Below, piece by piece: positions 7,643-27,693 of a stretch of DNA of 64,000 bases; the stretch's first letter is position 1, and each line of letters starts with the position of its first letter. The notes beneath the pieces are model-generated. The model did not search any database. It worked only from the letters and a program-made list of their open reading frames with translations, and was not told where the DNA came from. Source of the DNA: Candidatus Lloydbacteria bacterium RIFCSPHIGHO2_02_FULL_50_18. GTDB taxonomy: Bacteria; Patescibacteriota; Minisyncoccia; Phycocordibacterales; UBA6899. The stretch lies in the NCBI GenBank assembly GCA_001821395.1, contig MHLM01000001.1, forward strand, positions 96,001-160,000, given 5' to 3'. The translations under genes and the position numbers were made by a program.

Positions 7643-8320
7643 TTATGTTTTTTTTGCGTCACGCTCGCGCTTCATACGAAATACGGCACGGTCTGCGGCG
7701 AGGATCAGATCAAGGATCTTCTCGGGATCATTGATCGTGATCACCTTGAACGAAAAGGACATGAGCACTTCAGAAGTTTCATCGTTGATCCGATCAAGAC
7801 TCCACGGATACCGGCCAAACGACCGCTTGAGCTCATTCATGCGCATCTCGATGTATTCCGAAGAGATGCCCTCAGCGATGACGATAAACTCATCACCTCC
7901 GACGCGTCCCGCCATGTCATAATCGCGAAAATGATCATTGATCAAACGCCCAAAGACCCGCAGCACTTCATCACCGCCGGCATGACCAAAAGCAGTATTG
8001 ATGCTTTTGAACCGGTCGAGATCGAGCACCACAAGCGATCCGTAGGTTTCTCCATTCTTCAGCGTGCGCCTACGCATGCGCGGAAGTATGATCTTCTCAA
8101 TAAGCATAAAGAATGCATCCCGAGTGAACAGACCCGTTAGCTTATCCGTAATGAGTTGCTTGTGAGTACGCGCCAGGAAAATCGTAAGCGCATCCCACCC
8201 ACCGCGTTCAAACGACGACCTTGCCTCGACAAGAAAGCGCTGAAAAAGACTTATGGACGGCGTACGTTGCTTTTCGAAAACCTGAACTTCAGGCGGGACG
8301 ACCGATTTTAAAGCTGACAT
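7643..8320 (-). CDS. Diguanylate cyclase (GGDEF domain)
   Basis: DKLTGLFTRDAF and RVGGDEFIVIA (the GGDEF active site) are present. An alternative start at 8371 adds 17 aa. Confidence 0.8.
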   Translation of the reverse strand: MSALKSVVPPEVQVFEKQRTPSISLFQRFLVEARSSFERGGWDALTIFLARTHKQLITDKLTGLFTRDAFFMLIEKIILPRMRRRTLKNGETYGSLVVLDLDRFKSINTAFGHAGGDEVLRVFGRLINDHFRDYDMAGRVGGDEFIVIAEGISSEYIEMRMNELKRSFGRYPWSLDRINDETSEVLMSFSFKVITINDPEKILDLILAADRAVFRMKRERDAKKT

Positions 8321-8458
8321 TTTGATTCCTTTCGGTGTTCGTAAACTATTGAAAAACAGAACTCTGCGCAAACCATAGCACTGTTATCAATATTAGTCAA
8401 ATACTCGAATGACTATTTTGACGTTATACTCCCCTATATATTTGCTAATCCAACCACC

Positions 8459-10976: not shown

Positions 10977-11519
10977 CTAAAGAATGCTTTCCAGTTGAGC
11001 GAGATCAACCACCACCTGATCCGGCGCTAAGAGTGCATCATGGAGCATTCCCTGCGCTAAGGGAACACGGTCAATGCGAATACAACGAATATCCGGATTT
11101 TTTCGCTTCACTTCATCGATATTCTGCGGTGAATCATCGACGAATGTATGTTCCCAGCCCGGGTCTCCGACACGTGATAAATATTTACTCGCCTCTTCAC
11201 CCTTACCGGTCAAATTGTCCGTACTACCCTGCGTAATAATGACATCATCAACAAGGGGGATGATCCCCGAACCGCGAAGCTTTTTTCGCTGCAGAACGAC
11301 ATTGACCGCATACGTGAGAATAACAATGCGATGAGTTAAGCGCACTCGCTTCAAAAAATTGACGGTATCCGGATAAAGATAACTCGCAAAATCCGGCGGG
11401 GCTATCTCGCCGGACGTCAATGCGAGGATCCGTTCAAAACGATTCGGACCGATCCACGCATACAGCTGATCGGTATCAAAAATGGTTCGGTCGAAATCGA
11501 GGAATACTATGGGCTTCAT
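10977..11519 (-). CDS. HAD-family hydrolase
   Basis: Start MKPIVFLDFDRTIF carries motif I DxDxT. The longer ORF begins at 11549. Confidence 0.65.
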   Translation of the reverse strand: MKPIVFLDFDRTIFDTDQLYAWIGPNRFERILALTSGEIAPPDFASYLYPDTVNFLKRVRLTHRIVILTYAVNVVLQRKKLRGSGIIPLVDDVIITQGSTDNLTGKGEEASKYLSRVGDPGWEHTFVDDSPQNIDEVKRKNPDIRCIRIDRVPLAQGMLHDALLAPDQVVVDLAQLESIL

Positions 11520-11555
11520 GTATTCACTATACCAGAAGCAGAAAGGCAATGGTGC

Positions 11556-12029
11556 CTACTTCGGCGTATCTGTTGCTGTTCCTGTCTGAAGCGAGAGATT
11601 TGCGAGTCCGTGCTGCAAAAATTCCTTATCATACATGTCGGCCCTTTCTTCAAGCAGATTCTCATAATTCTCTTCAGACATTTTTTCCTTAACGTCTTTC
11701 CCGTGCATCGCTTCGACATCACGCTCGGCAAGTTTCTCCGACAAGAGTTCAACCATGACATGGAGATCGTATTCATCCATCAACTTGTTCACTTCGGGGT
11801 CGTTCTCAAATACGCGCGAAGGATGATGATGCTCTTCACCCGCCAGCTTGTGTCGTGAAGTAGCCGCTGGATACCCGGCATCTTTTGCACGCGAAAAGAC
11901 GTACTGCTCAAGATCATCATACGCTACCTCAAAATCAATATCGCGATGACCGTTCGCGACCGTATTCGCTATATAGACCATCCGTAAAAGGGTCTTGAAT
12001 TGTTCGGGGGTGAATGCAAGTCCTATCAT
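11556..12029 (-). CDS. Hypothetical protein (157 aa)
   Basis: Acidic, helical ORF with no recognisable motif. Confidence 0.45.
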   Translation of the reverse strand: MIGLAFTPEQFKTLLRMVYIANTVANGHRDIDFEVAYDDLEQYVFSRAKDAGYPAATSRHKLAGEEHHHPSRVFENDPEVNKLMDEYDLHVMVELLSEKLAERDVEAMHGKDVKEKMSEENYENLLEERADMYDKEFLQHGLANLSLQTGTATDTPK

Positions 12030-12063
12030 AGAAAATGACTATAACACAACACCGGATGCGACA

Positions 12064-12324
12064 CTATTCGAAGAGCGCAGCGTTCGTTTCCGCATTGCGC
12101 TCATTCAATTTCTTCTGCACAACCTTTGCGGCATCGACATCCGCATGTGCTCGCTCAAACCCAGTCCTCGCGGGCGTTCCGCTTGCAGAAAGTGGCTGAA
12201 ACGAATCGGTCGCCGGAGGCAGTTGCGGCGTGAAATATATCTTTGTATACAATAGTCCGATGATCGCGACGATGACCATAAGTGCGATGAGTGGAAGATA
12301 GCCGCCTTCGCTGTTCTTTTGCAT
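12064..12324 (-). CDS. Small membrane-anchored hypothetical protein
   Basis: Start MQKNSEGGYLPLIALMVIVAIIGLLYTKIYF, with a single N-terminal TM helix. Confidence 0.45.
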   Translation of the reverse strand: MQKNSEGGYLPLIALMVIVAIIGLLYTKIYFTPQLPPATDSFQPLSASGTPARTGFERAHADVDAAKVVQKKLNERNAETNAALFE

Positions 12325-12391
12325 AAACAAATAGTAGCGATATTTAAGCAATGAGACAATATCAGGGCGCTCCCCAAAATAATAAAAATGT

Positions 12392-12823
12392 TCAATGGCC
12401 ACCTTTTGCGAACACCGTAAGCGCACGTCTCCGCACGAGGTGATCAGGTACGGTTTGCGCAACAAGAGCCCAGAATTCTTTGGAATGATCGAACATCACG
12501 AGATGACAGAGTTCGTGCACGATAATGTAATCCTGGAGCGGTTCGGGCAGTGTCAGGATCCGATAGTTAAAATTAAGATTCCCCTTCTTTGAACAGCTCC
12601 CCCAACGTGAGCGCTGATCCCTGATCGCGACCCTGTTGTACGCCAAATTGTAATGCCGATTCCACTCTGAGAGTTTGCGATGCACCAATATACGCGCTTC
12701 TTCTTTCTGTGCCGTATACGCCCGTTTTGAGCCCGTGAGACCGCCTATCCGACGTCGTTTGGTATAAATACGGTAGCGGACCGGGAATAGACCGAAGAGC
12801 CTTTTGAGGATGATGCGTGGCAT
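12392..12823 (-). CDS. YgjP-like metal-dependent hydrolase (DUF45/M48-like, HExxH)
   Basis: IIVHELCHLVMFDHSKEFWALV matches the DUF45 signature. Confidence 0.75.
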   Translation of the reverse strand: MPRIILKRLFGLFPVRYRIYTKRRRIGGLTGSKRAYTAQKEEARILVHRKLSEWNRHYNLAYNRVAIRDQRSRWGSCSKKGNLNFNYRILTLPEPLQDYIIVHELCHLVMFDHSKEFWALVAQTVPDHLVRRRALTVFAKGGH

Positions 12824-12879
12824 ATATAGGCAGTATTATCGCATGATACCTCTACCTCGGCACGTTTGACCTGTTCCCG

Positions 12880-13060
12880 ATAATTTACATGAAATGAAAC
12901 GGACCGCCATCGCGTCATAAGCAACAGCATGAGCCGGTGAACTATTTCAGCAATTGCCTTTTCGGCAGAAAGACGACCGTCGGGTTGTTTTTCCGGAAAC
13001 AGATCCAATTTTCGCATAGATCGCATCGACATCTTTTTTATTCATTTTTATGTAGGCCTA
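12880..13060 (-). pseudogene. Remnant of a PAS-domain gene (truncated paralog of 15350-15919)
   Basis: The translated fragment DLFPEKQPDGRLSAEKAIAEI matches NLSPEKQPDGRLSHEKAKEMI of the PAS protein. The DNA segment gaaagacg(a/g)ccgtcgggttgtttttccgga is shared with 15661-15695. Confidence 0.55.
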
Positions 13061-13104
13061 TTGATTTGATGGATGATGTGACACAAGGTCAATTATCCGC
13101 ACCA

Positions 13105-14925
13105 CTAAACGACAGGCAAACAAACAGTGATGGTCGTACCCTCAATGGGCCTGGACTCAACAGAAACAATTCCTCCATTTTTTTCTATGGCATCCTTTAT
13201 GAATACTTGATTTGCCGTTGCCGCGCCCTTCTCCTTATCACTCATACGGCCTGACGTGGGTATGGAGATTTTTAATAGGTCATCCTTCGAACTATCGAAT
13301 TCGGTACTGACAATGATTGTTTTAAGATATTTTTCAGTAGTTTCGTGCGAAATATGTATTGCCCCACCCTTTTTACCATGCTTGATCACATGATCCAGTA
13401 TGCCGAATATTGCATTTTCAATGACTGTCGGATTATCAACAAGGACGTTCAGAGATTCATCGGACGAGTCGTAATGCAAGCTGACCTCTTTTCGAAAAAG
13501 CAGTGGCATAAGAGCTATGTGTAACCGGTGTATCGTGGATATCATATCAAGCCCGATTTTTGATCGAATATTCATACGCTCAACCTCCTCGAGCAAATTA
13601 TCTATAATTTGAGTTATTTTCTGCGACTCATTTGCCAAAAGACTGATTCCTATCGACATGTCTGGGATAAGTTTTGTTATGCTCTCACGAGCATCGTTGA
13701 ACTGCTTAGCTACGGAATTAATGAGAGCCATTGGCACCTTCAGTTCCTGAACTTTATGCTGCAACACGATGAACATATCACCCAAACTGACTGTCATAGA
13801 ATTCATGCTTTCAGCAAGCTCGCTAAATTCGTCTCCCGTCTCTACCTCAATACGTTGAGAGAAATCGCCTGTTTTGATCGCTTCTGAGAGCGATTGAAAT
13901 TTCGACATTGGACTAATAAAAATGATGATTGTGCGATAAGCAAAAACAGAAACCAATAAAATACCTATCAGGAAAATAATAATACTCCTTACCACGATCG
14001 AGAGGACCGTATCCTCAACGCTCTGCATTCCTGTCTCTGTTACCAAGAAAAATGGGAGGTCTTCAAATTTAATCACCGAAATATTTTCGTTTTCTTTATC
14101 TTCCGCATCATAAATTTTTATCGTTACCATCTTCGTATAGGTATCGATGATTGTTTGCACCTCATTGTATTGTAACGGTACAACCTCCTTACCAAGCAAT
14201 TTACTCGTCTGTGTGATAAGTGCGATATTTTTAGACGAAAGTGTGCCAACACTTTTCAGAAAACGTTCGGATCGATTGGAAACTAAAATGATACCGAAAC
14301 TATCGGTAAGCATAACCGTACTTGTGTTTAACAGGTGACTGCGGAGGATCGAATCATCGATCTCGGTACTGTTTGTCTTGACCACCAAAACACCAACGAC
14401 ACTGCCGTCAGCGCTCTTTACTGGGTAAGAATAATAGTAGCCAAATTGATGGCTCGTGCTACCAATTGCAACATCAATATATGCATTACCACTCAATGCT
14501 TGTTTAAAATAATCCCGAAAACTATAGTCCTCTCCGATAAAACGCGCATCTGTTGAAACAAGGCCAATACCATGAGTATCCAAAAGGTAGATGGCCAAAT
14601 ATTTGACGTTTTCCTTTGTATATTCTGAAAAAATATCCAAAAGTACTTTTTTCTTCGCTTCGTCTGGGTGAATGGAAAAATCTCGCACTAAGGAGTTAGT
14701 CCCGAGCATTTTTGCAAATAGCTGATTAGTCTTTATCACCTGAGCAGTATGATGGACCTGCTCGGTCGCTATAACATTGATGTTGTTGATATTCCCCTCG
14801 ACAAGCGCAAAATTTACATAAAACGATATGACGAACGCCGTTAAAATACATAAAACAACAGATGATAAAACAAAAAGAATCGTTATTTTCGTTCGGACTG
14901 AAAAATTTCGGATATGAGATAGCAT
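13105..14925 (-). CDS. Cache-HAMP sensor histidine kinase-like protein (probable pseudokinase)
   Basis: N-terminal TM, a dCache-like periplasmic domain (YYSYPVKSADGSVVGVLVVK), a second TM and HAMP. The H-box-like segment is VQELKVPMALINSVAKQF, with Gln at the phospho-His position. The HATPase_c region has a degenerate N-box (ILDHVIKHG) and no DxGxG. Confidence 0.7.
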   Translation of the reverse strand: MLSHIRNFSVRTKITILFVLSSVVLCILTAFVISFYVNFALVEGNINNINVIATEQVHHTAQVIKTNQLFAKMLGTNSLVRDFSIHPDEAKKKVLLDIFSEYTKENVKYLAIYLLDTHGIGLVSTDARFIGEDYSFRDYFKQALSGNAYIDVAIGSTSHQFGYYYSYPVKSADGSVVGVLVVKTNSTEIDDSILRSHLLNTSTVMLTDSFGIILVSNRSERFLKSVGTLSSKNIALITQTSKLLGKEVVPLQYNEVQTIIDTYTKMVTIKIYDAEDKENENISVIKFEDLPFFLVTETGMQSVEDTVLSIVVRSIIIFLIGILLVSVFAYRTIIIFISPMSKFQSLSEAIKTGDFSQRIEVETGDEFSELAESMNSMTVSLGDMFIVLQHKVQELKVPMALINSVAKQFNDARESITKLIPDMSIGISLLANESQKITQIIDNLLEEVERMNIRSKIGLDMISTIHRLHIALMPLLFRKEVSLHYDSSDESLNVLVDNPTVIENAIFGILDHVIKHGKKGGAIHISHETTEKYLKTIIVSTEFDSSKDDLLKISIPTSGRMSDKEKGAATANQVFIKDAIEKNGGIVSVESRPIEGTTITVCLPVV

Positions 14926-15349
14926 AGAGATTTTTCTTAACCGGTAACTCGATCATTTGCCATCACCATGACACGGTGCACTCTCGGTCAATAATTTATT
15001 CCTAAAAAGACGGGTCCATTGCAAGAACATTGTTTGATACTCGCAGCAAGCGTTCTTTGTCCATTTTTATTAACAAGAGAATGCATTTTTCATCGTCGCG
15101 GGGCAAACACTTAACTCCATCAGTATACTATGTATTACAATAGGAAACCATATAATTTCTCACTGGAACATATCTTACCCGTATTGCTTCGGCGTTATCA
15201 TTGAGATCATTCTTGCGTCCCAAGATGACGCTCTTCGACAACGGTACACATGACGAAAGATTAGTGAAGTGCCTTTGTGAACCTTGCGAAAAGCAGAAAA
15301 AACGAAAAATATTCCACGACGACTAGGGCGGCAAGGATGGGGGCTTGTG

Positions 15350-15919
15350 CTATTTCTGCAATTTTCTCCGGATCTCTTCTATTTCGCTCCGTAGTTCGTT
15401 CTTTTCTATTTCATGCTTTTTCATCAACCGATTCATCTTTTCAACTTCCTCACTTTTCTCTTTTATGAGCAAGTGGTCTGCGATCTTCTCTTTTGTAACA
15501 TCTCTTACGGTGGCCTCAATGATCGACTGATCGCAAAGATCAATACGTGCAAGCAGTACTGTTGCAGGGAACTCTTCGCCATTCAGCCTGCGGTGTGTCC
15601 ATTCGAAAAAATGTGAGCCGTCATGCATCGCCGCGTTGATCATCTCCTTGGCCTTTTCGTGCGAAAGACGGCCGTCGGGTTGTTTTTCCGGAGAGAGATT
15701 CCAAGGTCCATTCGCAGTAAATTCTGTCTTATCTTTTGCTCCAAACATTTTTAATGCGGCGGCATTTCCATCGGTGAAACTCCATGCAGGAGGTTCAAGC
15801 GTCATAAGTGCGTCCGCAGAACTTTCAAAAAGCGCGCGGTAGCGCAATTCATCACCTTTTAAGACCTCTTCTAGCGTCTCACGATAGATTGCATCGACAT
15901 TTTTTTTATTAGTGTTCAT
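15350..15919 (-). CDS. PAS domain protein with C-terminal coiled coil
   Basis: ESSADALMTLEPPAWSFTDGNAAALKMFGAKDK..., a PAS fold. The C-terminus is a charged helix. Confidence 0.65.
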   Translation of the reverse strand: MNTNKKNVDAIYRETLEEVLKGDELRYRALFESSADALMTLEPPAWSFTDGNAAALKMFGAKDKTEFTANGPWNLSPEKQPDGRLSHEKAKEMINAAMHDGSHFFEWTHRRLNGEEFPATVLLARIDLCDQSIIEATVRDVTKEKIADHLLIKEKSEEVEKMNRLMKKHEIEKNELRSEIEEIRRKLQK

Positions 15920-15974
15920 GTGGGTTTATTAATTGATGAATAATGCATTTAAAATGACTGATCATGCCTCAAAC

Positions 15975-18023
15975 TCAAACGAATGGTAAGTACACCGACA
16001 CGGTCGTCCCTGCTCCCAATTCGGATTCAATAGTGATGATTCCACTGTTTTCTTCTATGTTATTCTTGATGGTCAGCAGACCTAATTGGGGCACTTTTGC
16101 GTATTCGACACTTATTGATTTCGGGGTAGGAGCATATATTTTTAACATATCCTCCTTAGAAATTCCGAGCCCGTTATCTCTAATGATCGTTTTGAAATAT
16201 TTTCCCGCAGCATCATGTTCAATAAATATATCTCCGCCGCGCTTACTGAATTTGATTGCGTTATCCAGCAGACCTGCAAATGATCGTTCGATCAATTCCG
16301 GATCATCGACCAGAACGTGAACGAAGGTTTCGGGCGGTTCATAGTGGATAGCCACCTCCGACAGAGAAGCAGAGGGGACCAGACGGGCCTGCAGACTCTT
16401 GAGCATCGTTACGAGGTCAAATATCATTTTATGTCTAATGTTCGCACCCTCGATCTCATCAAGGAGGCCGTCTACCATTTGCGTTATTTCTTGCGAAGCA
16501 TCAACAATAAGGCTGATCCCCATCGACATGTCCGGAATGAGCGCCGTGATCTTCTGTCGCGCATCATTGAATTGCTTAGCTACGGAATTGATGATGATAA
16601 GAGGGGGCTTCAATTCCTGAATGACACTTGCAATCAAGTCTGTTTTTCTCTTTTCTAACAATAATTCTTCTGTTGTGTTTCTTAAAGTTACGATGCATCC
16701 GGTCACGACATTATTGTCATTCTTTATCGGCGCGGCGCTGCTCACGACCGATACTTCATTTCCTCCTTTGTCGACGATCACAGTATGATCTTCCGAAGAT
16801 CTTTTTTCTCCACCAAGCATCGCCTCTTCAATGAACAATATGTTCGCTTTTTTATCACCCACTCTCACCAGTTTCACAATATCCTTAAAATTCTGACCCA
16901 TCGCCTCCTCGTCCGTGATATCGGTAAAATCTTCCATTACATTATTCCAAAGCGCTATCTTCCAATTTCTATCTATTACCAACATGCCGTCACTGATACT
17001 ATTAAGATAGACCTTCTCCCTACGGCGCAATTCGCTCGAGACGGAAAATATTTTCAAGACTAGCAGCGTAAGCAACAATAGAAATAATCCGACTATAATG
17101 TCCACAAAAGCCACGTGCGTCAAACTGGAATAATAGTCCGCAAAAGCAAACTGTGTCGGACGTTGAACGACAACGCCCCATTTGTACTCGGGAATTTGCC
17201 CGTACGCAGAAAGCGCCTCCTCGCCCCCCATTTCATCATAGGTAATCTCTACGAAGCTTTTGCCACTCAATACTTCTTTTACCGCACTGACCTGCGAATA
17301 ATTAACAAACCCATTATTGAGATCAAAATACGGATGCACGAGCAGGTTGCCATTCTTATCTATAAGATAGGTAAAACCGCCGGGTCCAACATCAACATTA
17401 CGGATCCACGCGGCAATTTTATCCAGTGAAGTTTGAACAAGAAGATATCCGACAACAACGTTCTTTTCGTCACGCACCGGCGCGGCGACGACAGTAACAT
17501 ACACTTCTGGGTGGATTCCCCTTTTGAACACCCCGCTAATTTCTAGCTTTCCCGTAACCGTAATATTTTTGTACCATTCACGATCAGCACGACTTTGTCC
17601 GATGATCGACGGATCGGCAGGATACACATCAATAAGTATGCCGGCTGGATCGAGCAGTGCAACGCCAACAACATCAGAATTACCCATGGCGATATTCCCT
17701 AACAAAAGACTGTTTTTATCCCATTTTGCCTCCTTTGTGTAGTTTACGATATTTGCCTTCGACGCATGCGTAATGACAAGATCCTCAAGAAGATCCAACC
17801 TTGGGGTTACAATGCTCTTCGTATGTTCAACAAGTGCAGCACTGCGCTCATACACGTCAGTTCTCAATACATTCCGATAGGTGACAAAATCATATCCGGT
17901 TGCCAAAATATATGGAACCATTACTGCGAGAATGATCAACAGCCTACTTCTCCAGGAGGTTGGTTCTACAAAGGAAACACTATTGGACACTCGTTTCAGA
18001 ACCTCTTTGACCATATTTAGCAA
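15975..18023 (-). CDS. Cache-PAS sensor histidine kinase-like protein (H-box His replaced by Gln)
   Basis: TM, a dCache-like domain, TM, PAS, then the H-box-like ASVIQELKPPLIIINSVAKQF. HATPase_c is present with N-box LLDNAIKFS and G1 RDNGLGI. Confidence 0.75.
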   Translation of the reverse strand: MLNMVKEVLKRVSNSVSFVEPTSWRSRLLIILAVMVPYILATGYDFVTYRNVLRTDVYERSAALVEHTKSIVTPRLDLLEDLVITHASKANIVNYTKEAKWDKNSLLLGNIAMGNSDVVGVALLDPAGILIDVYPADPSIIGQSRADREWYKNITVTGKLEISGVFKRGIHPEVYVTVVAAPVRDEKNVVVGYLLVQTSLDKIAAWIRNVDVGPGGFTYLIDKNGNLLVHPYFDLNNGFVNYSQVSAVKEVLSGKSFVEITYDEMGGEEALSAYGQIPEYKWGVVVQRPTQFAFADYYSSLTHVAFVDIIVGLFLLLLTLLVLKIFSVSSELRRREKVYLNSISDGMLVIDRNWKIALWNNVMEDFTDITDEEAMGQNFKDIVKLVRVGDKKANILFIEEAMLGGEKRSSEDHTVIVDKGGNEVSVVSSAAPIKNDNNVVTGCIVTLRNTTEELLLEKRKTDLIASVIQELKPPLIIINSVAKQFNDARQKITALIPDMSMGISLIVDASQEITQMVDGLLDEIEGANIRHKMIFDLVTMLKSLQARLVPSASLSEVAIHYEPPETFVHVLVDDPELIERSFAGLLDNAIKFSKRGGDIFIEHDAAGKYFKTIIRDNGLGISKEDMLKIYAPTPKSISVEYAKVPQLGLLTIKNNIEENSGIITIESELGAGTTVSVYLPFV

Positions 18024-18182
18024 AATTTTTTTGTTGTTCGTAAAAAATTCGAACGTAAGACCACGTCAGTATACTACAAATTATAGTAAGGGACCATGAA
18101 GTTACTCAATAGTAACACGTTCTGAGTACGTCCTTCCGTATTTTTTAGAACCTGCACTTCCATATCTCATTTGCAATCGCCC

Positions 18183-21100
18183 CTAATCCAGCTTTTTAGT
18201 CCCTCGTTTTGCGATCATTCCGGAAAGCGGGAACAAACAAGCAAATACCGTGTCCTCACCGACCTTTGATGTGAACCAGATCTTCCCGCCCGCATTTTCG
18301 ACGATCTGCTTCACAACATACAGCCCGAGCCCTGTACCATCCACGTCCTGTTTTTGGGCATTACTTGCCCGAAACATCTTCTGAAATATCTGTGACTGTT
18401 CACCTTCGGGGATCGGCTCTCCGTTGTTTGACACACTAAAGATGACGTTGCCGCCGTCAGCATGAAGCACTACCGTGATTCTCCCATTATCCTGGGTGTA
18501 CTTAACCGCATTCGAAATAAAATTCTGAAACACCACACGCAGCAGCTTCGCATCGGCAGGGATGATCGGTAATTGCGCGTCGAAGTGCGTGATCATCTGA
18601 TGACCTTTTTGTGCGATACGTCCCTCCATTTCCTTGAGTACCTCATTGCACACTGCGACGAAATCAGTCGGCGTCGGCTCAACGATGAAGACGCCCATCT
18701 CAATACGAGAAACATTGAGGAGTGCGTGGATCAATTCGTTGATACGCGTATTCAGAGAGTAAGTCTCACGCAATATCTCCTTCTGATTATCGGGCATTTC
18801 ACCGTAATCACCATCCAAGAGCATCTCAAGATTCCACTGTATCGCGCCGACTGGAGTCTTTAATTGGTGCGAAGCGAGTGAGACAAATTCGGTTTTTTCC
18901 CTATCGACGATCGATTCTTTCGTGATGTCCCAATTCACACCAACCATCTTGATTGCCTTTCCGTCACCGTCACGCTCGACGAGCGCATGGTCTTGAATAT
19001 AATGCGTTTCCCCACTTGGCCATATGATACGAAATTGCATATTGAACTCCTTTTCACCTCTTAGTGCCGCCTGGATAGCATCGTCTCTCAATTTTTTGTC
19101 ATCAGGGTGCAGTCTTTTTTGCCACGCCTCGAACGTTCTCTCGGACTCTTCTTTCGACATTGCGTACAGCGCGTACATTTGATCATTCCATGAGATCTTG
19201 TCTTTTGTGATATCCCATTCCCACACACCGATCTGTGCCGACTCGGTTGCAAGAGCCAGTCTCCGCGATACTTTTGCAAGATTCTCTTTTTCGCTTTCAA
19301 CGTCATCTAAAATATTAAGCACTGCTTTTTTGGTATTTTCCAGTTCGGCAATATTTGTCACGAGGTCACTGTTCGCATTTTCCGCATACGCGATCGCCTG
19401 TTTTTTTGACCGTGCAGTCACATATATCACACCAAAAAGCGCAAAGCTCATTAACAGGCCGACCACGACAATGAGGTAGCGCAACACGGCATAGGTACGG
19501 CCATTCGGAAGTAATGGCGCATTAGTAAATTCGATCGTCCATGGGTGATCAGCCACATACATCGTTACCGTAGTTCTGAACGTAAGATCCGACGCCCACC
19601 CCTCTACGCCCTCGCTCGCATCGAACATTAATCGTTCGGGAAGCATTCGCAGTCCGTCATAGATGCGGAATGTGATGTCCGCGCTTTTGAAAGCCTGACT
19701 TCCGCGTACAAGTTCGGCGGCATCGATCACGCTGAACACATAACCGAAGACGCTTTCTGGCTGCCGGGAAACACTGCCAGACGCAACATCGCCCCAATGT
19801 ACGGGGGCGTACGCGACGAAACCCGCCTTCATGCCTGCCCCCTCCTGTTGCATCAACATCACTCGGCCGGAGATAGAGGCCTCACCAGAGGCGCTTGCCG
19901 ACGCCATCGCACTGCGCCTCGTCTTCTCCGTAGACATATCAAAACCTATGGACCGACGATCCATTTCCGTAGGGGGCTCCACATAAAGAATGGGTGTATA
20001 TGCACTTCTCTCGCCTTCGGGTGTGATAACAAAATCAGGAAGCCCCTCTTTGCGCATAGAAGCAATGAATGCATCTTTTTCATCGGATGAAACGATCTGT
20101 GCAAATCCCAAACCCTGTATGCCGGGATAATTCTTGAACACTTTGATCGCCGTAAGATATGCACGCCATTCATCTCTGCTTACGGTTTGACTCGCAGCAA
20201 AGAGGCCTCCGGTTCCTCGGAGCGTATTGACGTAGATCTCCATCTGCTTTTGAATGTTAGCGCTGATCTCAGCGACCTCAGTAGCGAAATGAGACTGCTT
20301 TTCCTTCTCAGCATTTGCTTCAAATAAATAATACACGACAAACGTGATCGCGATGCTCACAATAAATATGATCAGAGCGATCCAATTTTCCCTCCAGAAA
20401 TTTTTGACCATTGTTACTTGTCGAATGTACATTAACATGAACAAAACGAGAAGAAGGAGCAAGAATGGGACTCCGAACTGAAAGAAAATGATCTTATTTC
20501 GCTCTTGTTCCGCCATTTGTACGTGCGCCCGGACACTTTCATCTGTATATGTATTTAAAAATTGGTTATATGGCAGCGATCTTTCACCGGTCTTTATGTC
20601 AAAATAAAAATAATCTATTGAAAAATCTTCCATTTTCACGACGTGACCAGAGATCGGTTCGATCCACATAAAAAGATCGCTTGAGAGCTTTACCCCGCGG
20701 GTCTCCGGTACCCCGGGAAGGAATCCCATGAGCTCCGTTTGGTCGGTCGGCTCAATATTGCTTTTTTGGTACTTGAATACTTTTAACCCGTACAAGGTCT
20801 CCTCACCTACGTACTTCATCTGTGAAGGAGTGTTGTTGCTTGCATGCCAGTACGTGAAAGAACTACCCCCCTTGAGCCATCTGGGCGCAAAAAGATACCC
20901 GTCCCTATCTCTATCTCCGGCACCCCTTACGTGTTGCCCGTTCAGCGCATTTATCCCATAGAGTGGCTCTGCGCGAAAGATGGTCTTTCCGTCCAGTGAT
21001 GCGACGTGAAATATATTTTTTATCGTGAAGATGAATCCCGCATACGAAACGACCTCATAAGAAAAATCCGTTTTGGAGTATTGTTCAGCACCAAATTCAC

Positions 21101-21290
21101 CAATGGATGCATCATAAAAATTATCAACAGACACCATGTCCGCCTTGTACGTAAAATCGCTCGGTATCATCAATAGATACGGGGCGACAAGAAAATACCA
21201 TAACGGGACAAATAGCAAGACTGCAAAAGAAAATATGTTCCTGCGCACATATTGAATAAAGGCTGTGATCGTATGTTTTATCTTATCCAT
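18183..21290 (-). CDS. CHASE-PAS sensor histidine kinase (canonical)
   Basis: 1035 aa. It has a large extracytoplasmic N-region, a CHASE-like domain (GIQGLGFAQ..., PILYVEP), PAS, an intact H-box SLASHQLKTPVGAI, an N-box and G-boxes DGTGLGLYVV. Confidence 0.8.
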   Translation of the reverse strand: MDKIKHTITAFIQYVRRNIFSFAVLLFVPLWYFLVAPYLLMIPSDFTYKADMVSVDNFYDASIGEFGAEQYSKTDFSYEVVSYAGFIFTIKNIFHVASLDGKTIFRAEPLYGINALNGQHVRGAGDRDRDGYLFAPRWLKGGSSFTYWHASNNTPSQMKYVGEETLYGLKVFKYQKSNIEPTDQTELMGFLPGVPETRGVKLSSDLFMWIEPISGHVVKMEDFSIDYFYFDIKTGERSLPYNQFLNTYTDESVRAHVQMAEQERNKIIFFQFGVPFLLLLLVLFMLMYIRQVTMVKNFWRENWIALIIFIVSIAITFVVYYLFEANAEKEKQSHFATEVAEISANIQKQMEIYVNTLRGTGGLFAASQTVSRDEWRAYLTAIKVFKNYPGIQGLGFAQIVSSDEKDAFIASMRKEGLPDFVITPEGERSAYTPILYVEPPTEMDRRSIGFDMSTEKTRRSAMASASASGEASISGRVMLMQQEGAGMKAGFVAYAPVHWGDVASGSVSRQPESVFGYVFSVIDAAELVRGSQAFKSADITFRIYDGLRMLPERLMFDASEGVEGWASDLTFRTTVTMYVADHPWTIEFTNAPLLPNGRTYAVLRYLIVVVGLLMSFALFGVIYVTARSKKQAIAYAENANSDLVTNIAELENTKKAVLNILDDVESEKENLAKVSRRLALATESAQIGVWEWDITKDKISWNDQMYALYAMSKEESERTFEAWQKRLHPDDKKLRDDAIQAALRGEKEFNMQFRIIWPSGETHYIQDHALVERDGDGKAIKMVGVNWDITKESIVDREKTEFVSLASHQLKTPVGAIQWNLEMLLDGDYGEMPDNQKEILRETYSLNTRINELIHALLNVSRIEMGVFIVEPTPTDFVAVCNEVLKEMEGRIAQKGHQMITHFDAQLPIIPADAKLLRVVFQNFISNAVKYTQDNGRITVVLHADGGNVIFSVSNNGEPIPEGEQSQIFQKMFRASNAQKQDVDGTGLGLYVVKQIVENAGGKIWFTSKVGEDTVFACLFPLSGMIAKRGTKKLD

Positions 21291-21473
21291 ATATGATGCT
21301 CCGGTATTTATACAGAAAATTCATCATTACCCAGAATATTTTTCTATGACTCCATAAAGTATAGCAAATAAAATGTTTGAACCATATGGACGCGTTTATA
21401 CATGAGACAAAGTCCTTAGATCGGCGTTCGCGCAAAAAAACTCGGTGGAAAAAGTTTGTACCGATAATTCCCT

Positions 21474-21872
21474 CTACCGTTCTTGCCATAAAGAAACGAC
21501 AAGCGGGTTAAGGGAGCCGGTAGTAATGTGAACATTACGGACGATATCACTCACGGAACCAACAACGGCGATCGCACGTGATGTTCCACCGGTATTGCTC
21601 ACCGTATATGTACAAGTGCTCTCGTTAAGCATTACGTTCCCCGTGCCGGTGTATGAATTATTTTCACGTAGTGTTTCTAGCGCAACCTCCGCACAAGCAT
21701 TCACAAGAGCCTTGGCGTGAACTCCATTTCTTGTGTTAATACTCCCCCTGATCGACCACATACTGCTTGTTGCGAGTGCAAGAGTGAGGGAAAGCGCAGT
21801 ACCGCCGAGAACGATGACGATGAAAAGCGTCGAGAATCCTTTTTGAACTTTTTTGTGGAAAAGATATTTCAT
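21474..21872 (-). CDS. Prepilin-like (pseudopilin) protein
   Basis: N-terminus MKYLFHKKVQKG-FSTLFIVIVLGGTAL is a class III signal-like region. It lacks Glu5. Confidence 0.5.
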   Translation of the reverse strand: MKYLFHKKVQKGFSTLFIVIVLGGTALSLTLALATSSMWSIRGSINTRNGVHAKALVNACAEVALETLRENNSYTGTGNVMLNESTCTYTVSNTGGTSRAIAVVGSVSDIVRNVHITTGSLNPLVVSLWQER

Positions 21873-21873
21873 A

Positions 21874-22386
21874 TCATTTACGTAATGCTCCGCTACCGTC
21901 AAAACGCACCACGTACGGAATGCCGGCACCGGCATTTGTCGTTGCACTCGTCAGTACAAAGCTGACTTGGACGATGTTAGGCGTACCCGGTTGAGAAAAG
22001 TTCGAGAAGATAAGATCGCTTATGATAACTTTGTTATTAGTGAGCTCAATCGGAGCACCGACACCTTCAGTGACATAGAGCACCCCGCCGCTTGCAGAGA
22101 ACGTCGTAGGACTCGTAGCGGGCGTTTCAGTGATCACACTCAGAAGTCCACCGAGCGCACCGACGGCGGGACTATTGACCTGACTGGCATTACGGAGCGT
22201 TTGCGTTATTGTTTTTATTGCACGCGAGCCCTGAGCGTTCACCTCAAACACGCTTTGACTGTGCAAACGCGCGGAGATGAGGCCAGCGGAAAAACTCATC
22301 AGCCCGATCACGAACACGCCGAATATCGCCACGTAGACGATCATTTCTATAAGTGAGAAGCCTTTTTGCATATCATATATTTTCAT
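21874..22386 (-). CDS. Type IV pilin-like protein (prepilin N-terminal cleavage/methylation domain)
   Basis: MKIYDMQKG|FSLIEMIVYVAIFGV is the canonical G-F-x-x-x-E prepilin motif. Confidence 0.75.
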   Translation of the reverse strand: MKIYDMQKGFSLIEMIVYVAIFGVFVIGLMSFSAGLISARLHSQSVFEVNAQGSRAIKTITQTLRNASQVNSPAVGALGGLLSVITETPATSPTTFSASGGVLYVTEGVGAPIELTNNKVIISDLIFSNFSQPGTPNIVQVSFVLTSATTNAGAGIPYVVRFDGSGALRK

Positions 22387-22387
22387 A

Positions 22388-24091
22388 TCATAAGGGCGTC
22401 AGACCGACACTAAAGACATGTTTCACCGTGGAGCCAGACGTCCCAATGCTATCGATAACCCCCGTTACTCCCGGTGCAACAATGAACCTGCGATAACTGG
22501 CCCTCGAGAAATCTGATGTGTTTGCACCGCGATCGTAATCTTCGGTCCACCCGCCCCCCTGCGTGAGCGGATTGGCAAACGTGCGCACGGTGGTAGTGTA
22601 CATGCTTGCAAAGACGAGCACTGTTGTGTTGGCGGTTGGAATCGTCATTGATGCGGCACGATAGGTCGTATTACTGACCACGTATTTCGTATTTGAAAAT
22701 ACAGAAATGGGATTTAAGACATCAAAGCAACCACGATATGCGGATAGCGTTACTGCGATCTTTGAGGCGGCGCTAAATCCAAATGTATAATTTGCCCCCT
22801 CAGCCGCTCCTGCGATCTTGTAATAGAGTGCCTGATTGTAGTTACCATTCCTGTGACGGCCGACAAGATTCCATCCAGCGGGTATCACCGACAATCTATC
22901 GATATTTGCGGCAGGATTATGAAGGATGTGAGCAAAAAGAATATCCCCCGCGGCGACTCCGGTTGGCTTCGTTACAACCGCTGAAGCAGATGACGCAGAA
23001 TCGTACACGGTTGGAATACCGACCGGTGCTGAGGCAACAACGCAAGTAGCTGCACCCGTCGTAAATGTTCCATCAGCTGAATAGCCCGTTCCCGTGGTGT
23101 TTATCGCATAGCCACGATAGTAGTACGTCGTTGCTGCAGTGAATCCCGTACGTGCCTGGGTAAATATGCCAAGCGTCGTTCCTCCTTCCGCGACACAATT
23201 TGTCGTAGGTGCGGGTGTTGTTCCCCAACATATTCCGCGCTCTCCGATCGAGGCCGGAATACCGAGTGACGTGACGTTTGCTCCAAGTGTCGCGGTCGTC
23301 TCGGTAATAAGGGCTGCGGTTGGAGTAGTAACCGTGGGGATCACATATTCTTCATACGTAATAGTGCATAATTTTGTGTCGCCATTGGCAAGCATAATGC
23401 TATTTCCAAGGCAATCAGCAGAAAGTGTCAGAGCGTAATTGGGGTCGATCGTTGTCAAAAAAGTGTACACACCGGGACCGAGCGTCATCGTGAACGGTGA
23501 ATAAACGATCGGAATATTCACGGTATTCTGCACGGGTGGTTCTACGGAATTATCCCACGCCAACGTCTGAAGACTATTGGGAAGGAAGTCGCCGAGGACT
23601 TTTGTACCACCATGATTCACTACCGTCTTGTTCACCGTGAGCCCAATATTGAGCGGTGCACGCCAATTCGTAAGATACGTATCCATGGCAACCGTGTGAA
23701 TTCCTAGAACCTGGTCTTCCCACGAAACGACCGTATGTATCCTCTTTTGATCGCTATTGACGGTCGAGAGCGTGACCGTTCGCGAGAAAATACCCTGCAC
23801 ATCGAATGAACCGGATAGGGCCCAAACATTAGCGAGATTGGCGAGACCATAAGTGCCGTCGGGCAAATTTACGAAATCATACTGCGCATCGCGCAGATTT
23901 CTTATTATCTCAAAAGATGCTTCGGCAAGAAAAGCGGCTCTCTCACTGTTCGCGACATGTCGCGCATTACGTGCAACGGTTGTTGTGGCACCTATTGTAG
24001 CAACAACAAAAACCATAAACACTGATAATGCGATCAGTATCTCGATCAAAGAAGATCCGCGACTATTAATATGTGATGGTACCTTTTGCAT
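22388..24091 (-). CDS. Large type IV pilin-like protein (567 aa)
   Basis: N-terminus RG|SSLIEILIALSVFMVFVV is a prepilin motif with Glu5. The long Thr/Gly/Ala-rich beta-rich C-region suggests a minor or tip pilin or an adhesin. Confidence 0.7.
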   Translation of the reverse strand: MQKVPSHINSRGSSLIEILIALSVFMVFVVATIGATTTVARNARHVANSERAAFLAEASFEIIRNLRDAQYDFVNLPDGTYGLANLANVWALSGSFDVQGIFSRTVTLSTVNSDQKRIHTVVSWEDQVLGIHTVAMDTYLTNWRAPLNIGLTVNKTVVNHGGTKVLGDFLPNSLQTLAWDNSVEPPVQNTVNIPIVYSPFTMTLGPGVYTFLTTIDPNYALTLSADCLGNSIMLANGDTKLCTITYEEYVIPTVTTPTAALITETTATLGANVTSLGIPASIGERGICWGTTPAPTTNCVAEGGTTLGIFTQARTGFTAATTYYYRGYAINTTGTGYSADGTFTTGAATCVVASAPVGIPTVYDSASSASAVVTKPTGVAAGDILFAHILHNPAANIDRLSVIPAGWNLVGRHRNGNYNQALYYKIAGAAEGANYTFGFSAASKIAVTLSAYRGCFDVLNPISVFSNTKYVVSNTTYRAASMTIPTANTTVLVFASMYTTTVRTFANPLTQGGGWTEDYDRGANTSDFSRASYRRFIVAPGVTGVIDSIGTSGSTVKHVFSVGLTPL

Positions 24092-24527
24092 TGATGATAA
24101 TATTCCTTACACCAAAACTATTCGTGAGCGTTACCGAACCTGCCCCACCCGTGTTTCCCGTAACTTTCTCGAAGACGATCTCGGAAAGCCCTCCTGCGAA
24201 TACGCCACTCGGCAGGTCGAGCTTCTGGTCTGCTGAGATATCTCTTAGGGCATAGACCCCACCCTTAAAGACGACCACGGAACTCGTAAGTAATGCTACC
24301 CCCCATGGTGAGTCGGCTTTCCCCGACTCCGCATTCGCCTGTGCGTGACGGAGCGCCCCGACGACTCCCATCGTCGCGATCTCGAGATTTTCATGAGCCT
24401 TGAAACTGCCGTAGACTGTTATGGAGACCGCAGTAAGCAACATTATAATGCCAACGACCACGATCAACTCGACGAGTGTGATCCCACGGTGTGATGATCC
24501 TTTAATTGATCTGACTTGATAGTCCAT
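24066..24527 (-). CDS. Type IV pilin-like protein
   Basis: Start MDYQVRSIKGSSHRG|ITLVELIVVVGIIMLL is a prepilin motif. Confidence 0.7.
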   Translation of the reverse strand: MDYQVRSIKGSSHRGITLVELIVVVGIIMLLTAVSITVYGSFKAHENLEIATMGVVGALRHAQANAESGKADSPWGVALLTSSVVVFKGGVYALRDISADQKLDLPSGVFAGGLSEIVFEKVTGNTGGAGSVTLTNSFGVRNIIINAKGTITY

Positions 24528-25638
24528 ATAGTGGTCCCATGATAGCGAGCACAATAAAGCCGACGATCAGACCCACCACGATCAAAACGATCGGTTCTAA
24601 TATGGTGGCAAGATCACGCGACATTGCGTCTGTTTTTTCTTCAAAAATAATACCGATGCGGATGAATGTTTCCGACAACTTCCCGGACTTTTCGGCGGAG
24701 ATAATAAGCTGCTGTATCGGAATGGGAATGAATCGATCTATGTTCAGTAGACTGCCAAATGCTTCTCTGAACGATTCCCCGCGGAGCACGCTTGATTGCA
24801 GGTGCTCATAAAACCTTGCGTATGAGTCATATGATGTCCCTCTTTTGACCGAATCAAGCGCGTCAGCAACCGGGAATCCGGCTTGCAAAAGCACGCCGAA
24901 GATATACCCGAAACGCGCAACCTCGACCCCCTGCACGAGATCTTTTATCCCTGGTATGTGAAAAAGAATTACATCGCCGATGAATTTGGTTCTTTTATAA
25001 AAAAAACATGTATATACCAGAAGACCGATAGCGATGACGGATATAGGCACCGCAAAAGCACCATACTGCTCAAAGAAAGAGCCCATAGAGACCAATATTC
25101 TCGTCGCAAGAGGAAGCTCTCCCTTTGTTTCTGAAAAAATAGCGACAATCTTCGGTAGCACGAGCCACGCACTTCCCAGTGCGATGATAAGAGCGAGAAA
25201 AAAGACGATGCCCGGATACAACAATGCGGACCGGAGTCGTGAGTGGAACATCTTCTCTTTGTGCTGCTGAACGGTGACAAGATTCAAATGATCTGACAGC
25301 CTTCCCGCCTCCTCACCCGAACGAATGAGCGAGATGATGCGTTCTGAAAAAAGTTTTGTCTCCGAAAACGACCTCCAAAGCGGCATTCCCGAATTCACCA
25401 TCGACTCGATCGCAGCGGTAATCTTCTTCATCTTGCGTGTCTTGACCGAAAGACTGAGTGCTGCAAGGGCTGCGGATATCCCCATACCGGAAGAAATGAG
25501 CAGGCTCAAGTTTTCGATGAAATAGTCACGCTCATCACCGAAACCAACACTGAGGTACGGCCAGTCGGGGCGATATTCGAATGGGACTTCTTTAAAACCC
25601 TCATGTTCACGCGATTTTCGAAATTTTATTTGTTGCAT
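24502..25638 (-). CDS. pilC: Type IV pilus assembly platform protein PilC (GspF family)
   Basis: 378 aa with two GspF repeats and 3 TM helices. Confidence 0.8.
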   Translation of the reverse strand: MQQIKFRKSREHEGFKEVPFEYRPDWPYLSVGFGDERDYFIENLSLLISSGMGISAALAALSLSVKTRKMKKITAAIESMVNSGMPLWRSFSETKLFSERIISLIRSGEEAGRLSDHLNLVTVQQHKEKMFHSRLRSALLYPGIVFFLALIIALGSAWLVLPKIVAIFSETKGELPLATRILVSMGSFFEQYGAFAVPISVIAIGLLVYTCFFYKRTKFIGDVILFHIPGIKDLVQGVEVARFGYIFGVLLQAGFPVADALDSVKRGTSYDSYARFYEHLQSSVLRGESFREAFGSLLNIDRFIPIPIQQLIISAEKSGKLSETFIRIGIIFEEKTDAMSRDLATILEPIVLIVVGLIVGFIVLAIMGPLYGLSSQIN

Positions 25639-25647
25639 GGTCGTTTA

Positions 25648-27306: not shown

Positions 27307-27693
27307 TTATTTTTTTTGAAATAATTGTTCGACCCTTCTAATAACCTCGGCGATCGGCGTATCGGATTTGGAAATAAAGTCTGTAGCCCCCAGTGAGCGC
27401 GCCTTCTTCTCGTCTTCTTCCTGACTAAGATTCGACAAAACGAGAATGGGTATCTTGTTGTTTTTTTTCTGTAATCGTTCAAGGACCTCAAAGCCGTTCA
27501 CGATAGGCATGATGAGGTCGCACACGAGAAGATCAAAATGAGAGCGTTCAATCAAGGAGAGCGCCTCTTCTCCGTTCGGCACACTCTCCGCATAAAAACC
27601 CGAATTTTGGAGTTTTAAAACAAGCGCACGTGAATACGCCCTTTCATCCTCAGCAATAAGAATCCTCTTCTTACTTTTCTCACTTGGCGGCAT
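27307..27693 (-). CDS. Response regulator receiver domain protein (CheY-like, stand-alone)
   Basis: KRILIAEDERAYSRALVLKL... with a phospho-Asp in FDLLVCDLIMP and a conserved K in ILVLSNLS. Confidence 0.75.
   Translation of the reverse strand: MPPSEKSKKRILIAEDERAYSRALVLKLQNSGFYAESVPNGEEALSLIERSHFDLLVCDLIMPIVNGFEVLERLQKKNNKIPILVLSNLSQEEDEKKARSLGATDFISKSDTPIAEVIRRVEQLFQKK

Follow-up and report, generated by a model that had tools for sequence, protein, structure and literature searches.

Glutamine in place of the phospho-acceptor histidine in two Cache-domain kinase homologues, putative sensor pseudokinases strung with type IV pilus genes in a Lloydbacteria genome

What becomes of a sensor histidine kinase when the histidine that should carry the phosphoryl group is replaced by glutamine? 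This question is raised by two nearby genes of the groundwater bacterium Candidatus Lloydbacteria bacterium RIFCSPHIGHO2_02_FULL_50_18 (Parcubacteria), whose products are here called proteins A and B. They lie in a stretch of 64,000 nucleotides (nt) of contig MHLM01000001.1 (assembly GCA_001821395.1, positions 96,001 to 160,000 of the forward strand), which was analysed as a whole, is called the window and provides the coordinates used below. Bacteria of the candidate phyla radiation (CPR) have small genomes and are thought to rely on type IV pili for host contact and DNA uptake. To our knowledge, almost nothing is known of how these pili are regulated. Within the window, the strand of the pilus genes also carries five sensory proteins (E, C, B, A and D) and one receiver. 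Judging by their motifs, two of these five no longer take part in phosphotransfer, and yet they stay conserved; if they are functional, part of the regulation would run via protein contacts, as known for DivL of Caulobacter.

An earlier note, made from the DNA letters alone, had described A and B as kinase paralogues with Gln for His and had suggested that they are likely phosphorylation-dead or else use a non-canonical mechanism. Both open reading frames are present as it gave them, and every peptide that it quoted was found. The features needed for the comparison are the following, with TM for a transmembrane segment, DHp for the dimerisation and histidine phosphotransfer domain and CA for the catalytic and ATP-binding domain.

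15975-18023, minus strand: protein B, a His-less histidine kinase homologue of 682 amino acids (aa) from a TTG start, ordered as TM, dCache_1 (residues 102-286), TM, PAS (340-453), DHp (about 455-530) and CA/HATPase_c (574-682)
13105-14925, minus strand: protein A (accession OGZ05185.1), 606 aa, ordered as TM, dCache_1 (63-226), TM, HAMP (337-381), DHp (about 386-453) and degenerate CA (to 606)
18183-21290, minus strand: protein C (accession OGZ05188.1), 1035 aa, CHASE-PAS-HisKA-HATPase_c
16602-16619, minus strand: H-box remnant QELKPP of B (residues 469-474), with Gln469 (CAG) at the His site and Pro473 at the Thr/Asn site of the phosphatase motif
13732-13749, minus strand: H-box remnant QELKVP of A (residues 393-398), with Gln393 (CAG) at the His site and Val397 at the Thr/Asn site
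18852-18872, minus strand: intact H-box of C, SHQLKTP

We consider it probable (roughly 0.6) that A and B are transmembrane sensor pseudokinases which signal via protein contacts. This reading is preferred because Gln occupies the His site, conservation points to no other His, the phosphatase motif is without its Thr/Asn, the ATP lids are degenerate and both genes are under purifying selection. The same losses, together with the selection, point to the phosphorylation-dead option of the earlier note.

Loss of the phospho-acceptor and other catalytic motifs

With regard to domain content, Pfam reports dCache_1 (PF02743) in both proteins (75.4 bits in B and 62.1 bits in A, E 6e-21 and 7e-17, for a cut-off of 45 bits), i.e., the Cache assignment of the earlier note was right, and hydrophobic segments are seen on both sides of this domain in either sequence. 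Pfam further identifies a HAMP domain in A and a PAS domain in B. HATPase_c scores 45.8 bits in B and 17.5 bits in A, the latter below the cut-off. The full-length kinase models WalK, PnpS, PhoR and AtoS of NCBIfam span residues 331-681 of B with scores far under their cut-offs. C is matched by CHASE, PAS_3, HisKA (44.8 bits) and HATPase_c (91.6 bits), and its H-box is canonical, as had been stated. It is the sole intact-looking kinase of the gene string. B is called from the next ATG in database gene calls (679 aa), and A carries the label 'histidine kinase' in UniRef; such labels mislead on genes of this kind.

The profile comparison that the earlier note had proposed yields no HisKA match of Pfam in A or B, even at E<=1. 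When B is compared with all PDB chains by phmmer, its segment LIASVIQELKPPL aligns with FVSNVSHELRTPL of VicK, FIANVSHELRTPI of SrrB and FIANISHELRTPL of HK853. The local register pairs 'liasviQelkppl' of B with 'fvsnvsHelrtpl' (VicK), 'fianvsHelrtpi' (SrrB) and 'fianisHelrtpl' (HK853). This places Gln469 on the phospho-acceptor His, and a BLASTP comparison of B and C agrees with this H-box register. In a MAFFT alignment of B, A and C with the ten nearest relatives, Gln469 and Gln393 fall into a column that is otherwise entirely His, and an alignment of 35 sequences has His in this column for 32/32 canonical homologues. That is, the replacement claimed for both proteins is recovered by the PDB, family and 35-sequence alignments alike.

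The earlier note had named one observation that would speak against it, namely another conserved His, such as that of LQHKV, at the acceptor site in both proteins. The DHp regions hold only two His residues, His390 of A and His531 of B, and neither is common to both proteins. In B, the first DHp helix contains no His, and His531, which corresponds to a Ser of A, comes only at the end of the second. His390 (LQHKV) was rejected as an alternative phospho-acceptor: it is missing from B, and the corresponding residues read 'ENRV' in P0182, the orthologue of A from a related species.

Loss of the His is rare. In the survey of homologues, it is missing from 4 of about 195 other aligned kinase domains, independently, with Gln in P0148, Lys in P0048, Glu in P0095 and Asn in P0115. 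Sequencing error was also dismissed as the source of the Gln, given CAG in both A and B, Gln in the orthologue of A and an identical A protein on 17 contigs from several assemblies. Taken together, this rarity, the shared codon, the orthologue and the 17 contigs make chance or error unlikely. The four unrelated homologues carry their substitutions within otherwise canonical H-boxes (e.g., 'STSQELRTPL'), and P0048 and P0115 have two kinase-like domain matches each.

The remaining catalytic motifs were read from the 35-sequence alignment, with the 32 canonical homologues as reference. They are found at the following positions.

16077-16271, minus strand: ATP-binding motifs of B (N box 16245-16271, G1 16161-16181, F box 16119-16139, G2 16077-16094)
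13207-13401, minus strand: degenerate ATP-binding motifs of A (N box 13375-13401, G1 13291-13311, G2 13207-13224)

The residue four positions after the His (H+4), which belongs to the E/DxxT/N phosphatase motif, is Thr in 30/32 and Ser in 2/32 canonical homologues; B has Pro, and A and P0182 have Val. A Thr or Asn at H+4 is described as crucial for the phosphatase activity of HisKA proteins (PMC12963549). The Glu at H+1 is retained in both A and B (QELK). The Asn of the N box (32/32) is kept in B as Asn588 (LLDNAIKFS) and replaced by His in A (ILDHVIKHG). Similarly, the Asp, Gly and Gly of G1 (31/32, 32/32 and 31/32) are kept in B (RDNGLGI, D616-x-G-x-G) and lost from A (VSTEFDS), so that the description of these two boxes in the earlier note stands for both proteins. 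The F box, with Phe in 27/32 and the pattern 'F(E/D)(R/K)', is degenerate in B (IYAPTPK) as well as in A (ISIPTSG). Each of the three Gly of G2 (GTGLGL) is present in 31-32/32 homologues; B reads V-P-Q-L-G-L and A reads A-A-T-A-N-Q, i.e., V/Q/G and A/T/N at the Gly positions. The G3 box (GAGTT) is retained in B. The earlier note had located lid degeneration in one protein only. This is correct for A, but B is not intact either, since its F box and two of its three G2 Gly are also gone. C deviates at another site: its G1 box SNNGEPI (18411-18431) has Asn for the adenine-binding Asp and Pro for the second Gly, and C is alone among 32 aligned canonical homologues in having these substitutions.

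A and B share the architecture of class I kinases, namely a DHp hairpin and a CA domain of the Bergerat fold. The AlphaFold model of B (residues 442-682, mean pLDDT 81.5) comprises a predicted DHp hairpin (helices 3-51 and 58-86 in model numbering) and an alpha/beta domain, where the CA domain exceeds a pLDDT of 90 and the ATP lid is disordered and modelled with low confidence. Gln469, residue 28 of the model, is placed in helix 1, so the structure prediction suggested for the DHp helix would agree with the alignments. ZraS, HK853, WalK, DivL and RetS are the best Foldseek matches of the model in the PDB, and the top matches are all histidine kinases. By phmmer, HK853, VicK, SrrB and ZraS match across residues 455-681 of B.

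Origin and conservation of the His-less module

Closest to B are canonical kinases, among them P0034, P0039, P0055, P0043, P0051 and P0062, and the ten nearest all retain a 'HDLR(S/A)P' H-box, a 'LFTPYFR' F box and a 'GTGLGL' G2 box. P0051, from an uncultured bacterium, is of the same dCache-PAS-HisKA-HATPase_c build as B and of similar length (684 aa); its gene directly follows that of a stand-alone receiver protein of 132 aa. P0051, P0034, P0039 and P0043, all from uncultured bacteria, are homologous to B in the PAS domain (e.g., ENIVFIEEAMLYG versus ANILFIEEAMLGG of B) and in the CA domain, and they keep the His, F box and G2 that B and A are without. B is best placed as a derived, His-less branch of this ordinary dCache-PAS-HisKA-HATPase_c kinase family.

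Relatives that share the Gln are scarce. When 1.84 billion representative proteins were searched exhaustively with a profile, A and B alone fell below E 1e-30, and the next match scored 101 bits. A word-indexed protein search gave nothing closer than 28% identity besides the A cluster and P0182. A scan of JGI metagenomes with the patterns INSVAKQ and FNDAR returned generic kinases only and no Gln-type relative, and a scan of genome contigs for Gln-type relatives returned only distant kinases, from Pedobacter and Prevotella. Within the searches made, the Gln-type module is limited to a narrow Lloydbacteria lineage.

How A and B relate to each other depends on the region compared. The C-terminal 215 residues of A (392-606) are 47% identical to B, while its residues 1-394 (TM, dCache, TM, HAMP) are 71% identical to protein E, and the Cache sensors of A and B share about 21% identity. 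The junction falls exactly at the H-box. By its sequence, A is thus a chimera with E as a source-like paralogue of its sensor, and the paralogy with B, which the earlier note had assumed for the whole proteins, is confined to the DHp-CA module and does not extend to the sensors. The additional genes involved are listed below.

27860-29320, minus strand: protein E, 486 aa, dCache_1, HAMP and a C-terminal coiled coil
15350-15919, minus strand: protein D, 189 aa, PAS and a C-terminal helix, 55 nt after B
12970-13056, minus strand: remnant of another D-like gene that directly follows A, in two pieces (13056-13012 and 13007-12970)

The remnant comprises a start-codon region and an internal piece, is about 85% identical to the D gene on a contig from a related species (L009) and has lost about 177 nt in between. 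B is followed by D, and A by the D-like remnant; therefore, the ancestral unit consisted of a kinase-like gene and a PAS gene and was then duplicated. Since both copies have the Gln, the loss of the His is most parsimoniously older than this duplication. Within the unit, conservation is highest in D (90% amino acid identity to L009, with a ratio of nonsynonymous to synonymous divergence, dN/dS, of 0.05), which we consider a candidate partner for both pseudokinase homologues.

A C-terminal helix of the type 'MxGRELKMxELKKEIxELKEK' is common to E and D, with a divergent motif in D (KKHEIEKNEL). D-like proteins, i.e., a PAS domain with such a helix in about 160-320 aa and without a recognised output domain, are widespread, with 132 matches at E<=1e-5 under the source names Parcubacteria/Paceibacterota, Omnitrophota, Elusimicrobia, Margulisiibacteriota and Desulfosalsimonadaceae. 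We also considered D as a split phospho-His donor, given the resemblance of KKHEIEKNEL to an H-[DE]-x3-[QN]-x-L box. This is unlikely, as the wider D-like family has Arg at this site ('MVGRELKM').

To describe the constraint on both genes, we compared A and B with each other and with their orthologues. Between A and B, the proportion of differing synonymous sites (pS) is saturated at 0.72, and the nonsynonymous proportion (pN) is 0.34 for the whole comparison, with values of 0.21 for the DHp and 0.39 for the CA domain. Synonymous saturation at these pN values implies that the similarity is old and has been maintained. Recent gene conversion, which might have explained the likeness of the DHp regions, was discarded since synonymous sites are saturated there too (pS 0.68). 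P0182, encoded on the Logan contig L010 of a related species, is 70% identical to A and keeps 'VQELKVPL' including the Gln. Relative to A, its dN/dS amounts to 0.13 for the whole protein, with 0.17 for the DHp and 0.29 for the CA domain. It keeps the Asn of the N box and has lost G1 and G2, as has A. For B, L009 covers the last 113 codons of an orthologue, so the H-box lies outside that contig; this tail shows a dN/dS of about 0.06, retains the N and G1 boxes and reads VPGLDF at its degenerate G2. Nucleotides 1-2617 of L009 match 11054-16207 of the window with about 84% identity and preserve the order of B tail, D, a YgjP-like gene and a gene of 157 aa. These ratios place A and B under purifying selection, with the CA domain of A as the most relaxed part.

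Two short matches at the ends of L010 were also seen. Its nt 1-23 match an inner stretch of the receiver gene of the window without any difference (27491-27513, …IMPIVNG…), by either a real rearrangement that puts a receiver fragment ahead of the A orthologue or an assembly join, and its last 30 nt match the 3' part of D (15449-15478).

Conservation is strongest in the DHp. The segment 'QELKxPxxxINSVAKQFNDARxxIxxLIPDMSxGISL' is near-invariant in A, B and P0182, and the surface conserved between A and B spans INSVAKQFNDAR...LIPDMS. Paralogue identity amounts to 66-77% in the DHp versus 39-45% in the CA domain, and in the DHp it equals the identity of orthologues (73%). At the positions +8, +11 and +15 from the His, which determine regulator specificity in HK853 and have been rewired there, A, B and P0182 read I/L, S and Q (the HK853 residues were taken from PDB entry titles, those of A, B and P0182 from the sequences). 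By analogy to the complex of HK853 and RR468, this suggests that the segment is a surface for partner docking and dimerisation, which may serve a shared partner or A-B heterodimers.

Genes around A and B

On the minus strand, the gene order is E, receiver, PilB, PilC, four pilin-like genes, C, B, D, A and the D remnant. The earlier note had put A and B directly upstream of a type IV pilus operon; this is incorrect, as they are located downstream (3') of the pilus genes. The members of this string that have not been listed so far are the following.

27307-27693, minus strand: single-domain response regulator, 128 aa, Response_reg with 83 bits, immediately 5' of pilB
25648-27294, minus strand: PilB-like ATPase, T2SSE and MshEN
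24502-25638, minus strand: PilC-like platform protein, T2SSF
24066-24554, 22388-24091, 21874-22386 and 21474-21947, minus strand: four proteins among the type IV pilus genes (21474-27294), with N-terminal methylation motifs in 3/4

No other receiver domain was found in the gene-scanned stretches of the window (about 3.1-56.5 kb). The 567-aa protein of 22388-24091 has a weak N-terminal methylation motif and no other Pfam domain, and it is large for a pilin. A consensus scan of 12300-21600 for promoters and terminators gave counts not above those of shuffled sequence, which says nothing on operon structure. About 5 kb downstream of A, a stand-alone GGDEF protein is encoded (7643-8371, minus strand, open reading frame of 242 aa, GGDEF with 87.9 bits); c-di-GMP signalling may thus take place in this CPR genome.

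Signalling without phosphotransfer and its alternatives

Residue equivalence, motif loss, fold, purifying selection, the chimeric origin of A and gene order are established by the above; from the motifs we infer that catalysis is lost in A and B, while a specific partner and an output to the pili are proposals. The course of events would have started from a canonical dCache-PAS-HisKA-HATPase_c family with a 'HDLR(S/A)P' H-box. In an ancestor from this family, Gln would have replaced the His, and the Thr/Ser at H+4 would have disappeared along with most of the ATP lid. Afterwards, the unit of kinase-like and PAS protein would have been duplicated, one copy would have gained an E-type Cache-HAMP sensor and become A, and the PAS partner gene of A would have decayed. 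Sensing would still be provided by the extracellular dCache domain of both proteins, the cytoplasmic PAS domain of B and the HAMP domain of A, and the DHp hairpin would still form. Neither His autophosphorylation nor phosphatase action of the HisKA type should then be possible, such that ligand-driven movement of the DHp would be put out by protein-protein contact rather than phosphotransfer. The conserved DHp surface of A and B would most plausibly bind one shared partner, i.e., D, the receiver beside pilB, or C. Signalling that controls the type IV pilus genes of the same string would thereby be modulated.

Several observations weigh against this account. The link of A and B to pilus function is drawn from gene order. 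The 2.5 kb of 12872-15346 with A and the D remnant are missing from L009, and D is directly followed by the YgjP-like gene there; in relatives, A may be dispensable or located elsewhere. Given its extra N-box loss, its decayed partner gene and its absence from the L009 site, A may also be non-essential or in the course of being lost. At the positions for regulator specificity, A and B do not agree with C, and this speaks against the two simply competing with C for a single regulator. Finally, B keeps its N, G1 and G3 boxes across two species and may bind nucleotide and have some catalytic role.

The last point leads to the alternative that B, and perhaps A, is a non-canonical kinase which phosphorylates Ser/Thr/Tyr or His on another protein such as D or C. 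Precedents are Ser kinases derived from histidine kinases and the subfamily-2 ethylene receptors of plants. Asn588, D616-x-G-x-G and GAGTT of B, the N and G1 boxes of the L009 fragment and the CA domain modelled at pLDDT >90 fit this idea, as does a His in the C-terminal helix of D (KKHEIEKNEL) that is conserved in L009. However, the F box and two of three G2 Gly are lost in B and its orthologue, and N, G1 and G2 are lost in A. The His of D replaces an Arg conserved in the wider family ('MVGRELKM'), i.e., it is no family-wide phosphorylation site, and neither His390 of A, missing from P0182, nor His531 of B is shared. We thus regard such kinase activity as quite improbable. A somewhat better, still low chance is given to A and B as phosphatases or phospho-sinks, which would dephosphorylate or sequester a phosphorylated regulator and thereby oppose C. 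His-substituted mutants of EnvZ and NtrB retain phosphatase activity, the Glu at H+1 is kept (QELK), and the regulator-binding DHp surface known from HK853 is the most conserved part of A/B. Moreover, a stand-alone receiver is part of the same gene string, and such a receiver also accompanies P0051, a canonical relative. Against it, the H+4 residue has changed to Pro in B and to Val in A and P0182, so that catalytic dephosphorylation is unlikely, and pure sequestration would be a sub-case of a pseudokinase acting by protein contact.

Both genes could also be functionless relics, i.e., decaying kinase duplicates whose Gln marks a dead gene. The missing A between D and the YgjP-like gene in L009, the D-like gene reduced to a deleted remnant beside A, an N-box loss in A that P0182 does not share and the relaxed CA domain of A (dN/dS 0.29) would be expected then. 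But the reading frames of 606 and 682 codons have stayed intact although synonymous divergence is saturated, A yields a dN/dS of 0.13 versus P0182 and the B tail one of about 0.06 versus L009, paralogues and species agree in the Gln and the DHp sequence, and 17 contigs from several assemblies carry an identical A protein. This makes decay the least probable of the alternatives. Sensor pseudokinases that act by protein contact remain our preferred explanation. In an extended form, A, B and D would make up a phosphorylation-independent transmembrane signalling unit in which the two pseudokinases, with their almost identical DHp surface, bind a shared small partner (D or the receiver) and thereby gate the CHASE kinase or the pilus motor, as a DivL-like 'reverse' or scaffold circuit over type IV pili. 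We deem this extension unlikely; if true, a DivL-like scaffold circuit would govern host attachment or DNA uptake in a CPR bacterium of reduced genome. Independent of its output, the locus offers a clean, datable case of how a pseudokinase family originates, i.e., in this order, by loss of the His, duplication of the unit, swap of a sensor and loss of the second PAS gene.

Histidine pseudokinases such as DivL and PsmA are already known, and A and B are lineage-restricted additions to them. Particular to A and B are Cache-type transmembrane sensors, two copies of which one has a swapped sensor, and the arrangement with pilus genes in a CPR genome. RetS of Pseudomonas aeruginosa resembles them in being a transmembrane sensor with a DHp-CA core, and RetS structures are among the fold matches of B. 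It signals independently of its own His by direct contact with the kinase GacS; unlike A and B, it retains a His and has receiver domains. DivL shares with A and B a class I DHp-CA fold without phospho-acceptor His and has PAS domains N-terminal of the DHp, but its His site holds Tyr instead of Gln, and it is not a Cache-type transmembrane sensor. The DivL structure 4q20 matches B by phmmer with 26.8 bits (E 1.6e-5), compared to 48-55 bits for ordinary kinases. On sequence comparison, A and B are not orthologous to DivL or PsmA beyond generic kinase similarity. In Caulobacter crescentus, DivL binds the phosphorylated single-domain regulator DivK~P and modulates a bona fide kinase (PMC4211667). 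PsmA of Streptomyces was shown to be incapable of autophosphorylation; its H-box lacks the His, and the residue in its place varies by species, with Gln in S. avermitilis (PMC12963549). As in A and B, its ATP-binding motifs are degenerate, the D/ExxT/N phosphatase motif is lost and the residues after the lost His are conserved (PMC12963549). PsmA differs in lineage, sensors and context, being a kinase-like cytoplasmic hybrid that carries a receiver domain and binds DivIVA at hyphal tips, and where its residue at the His site is variable, the Gln itself is conserved in A and B.

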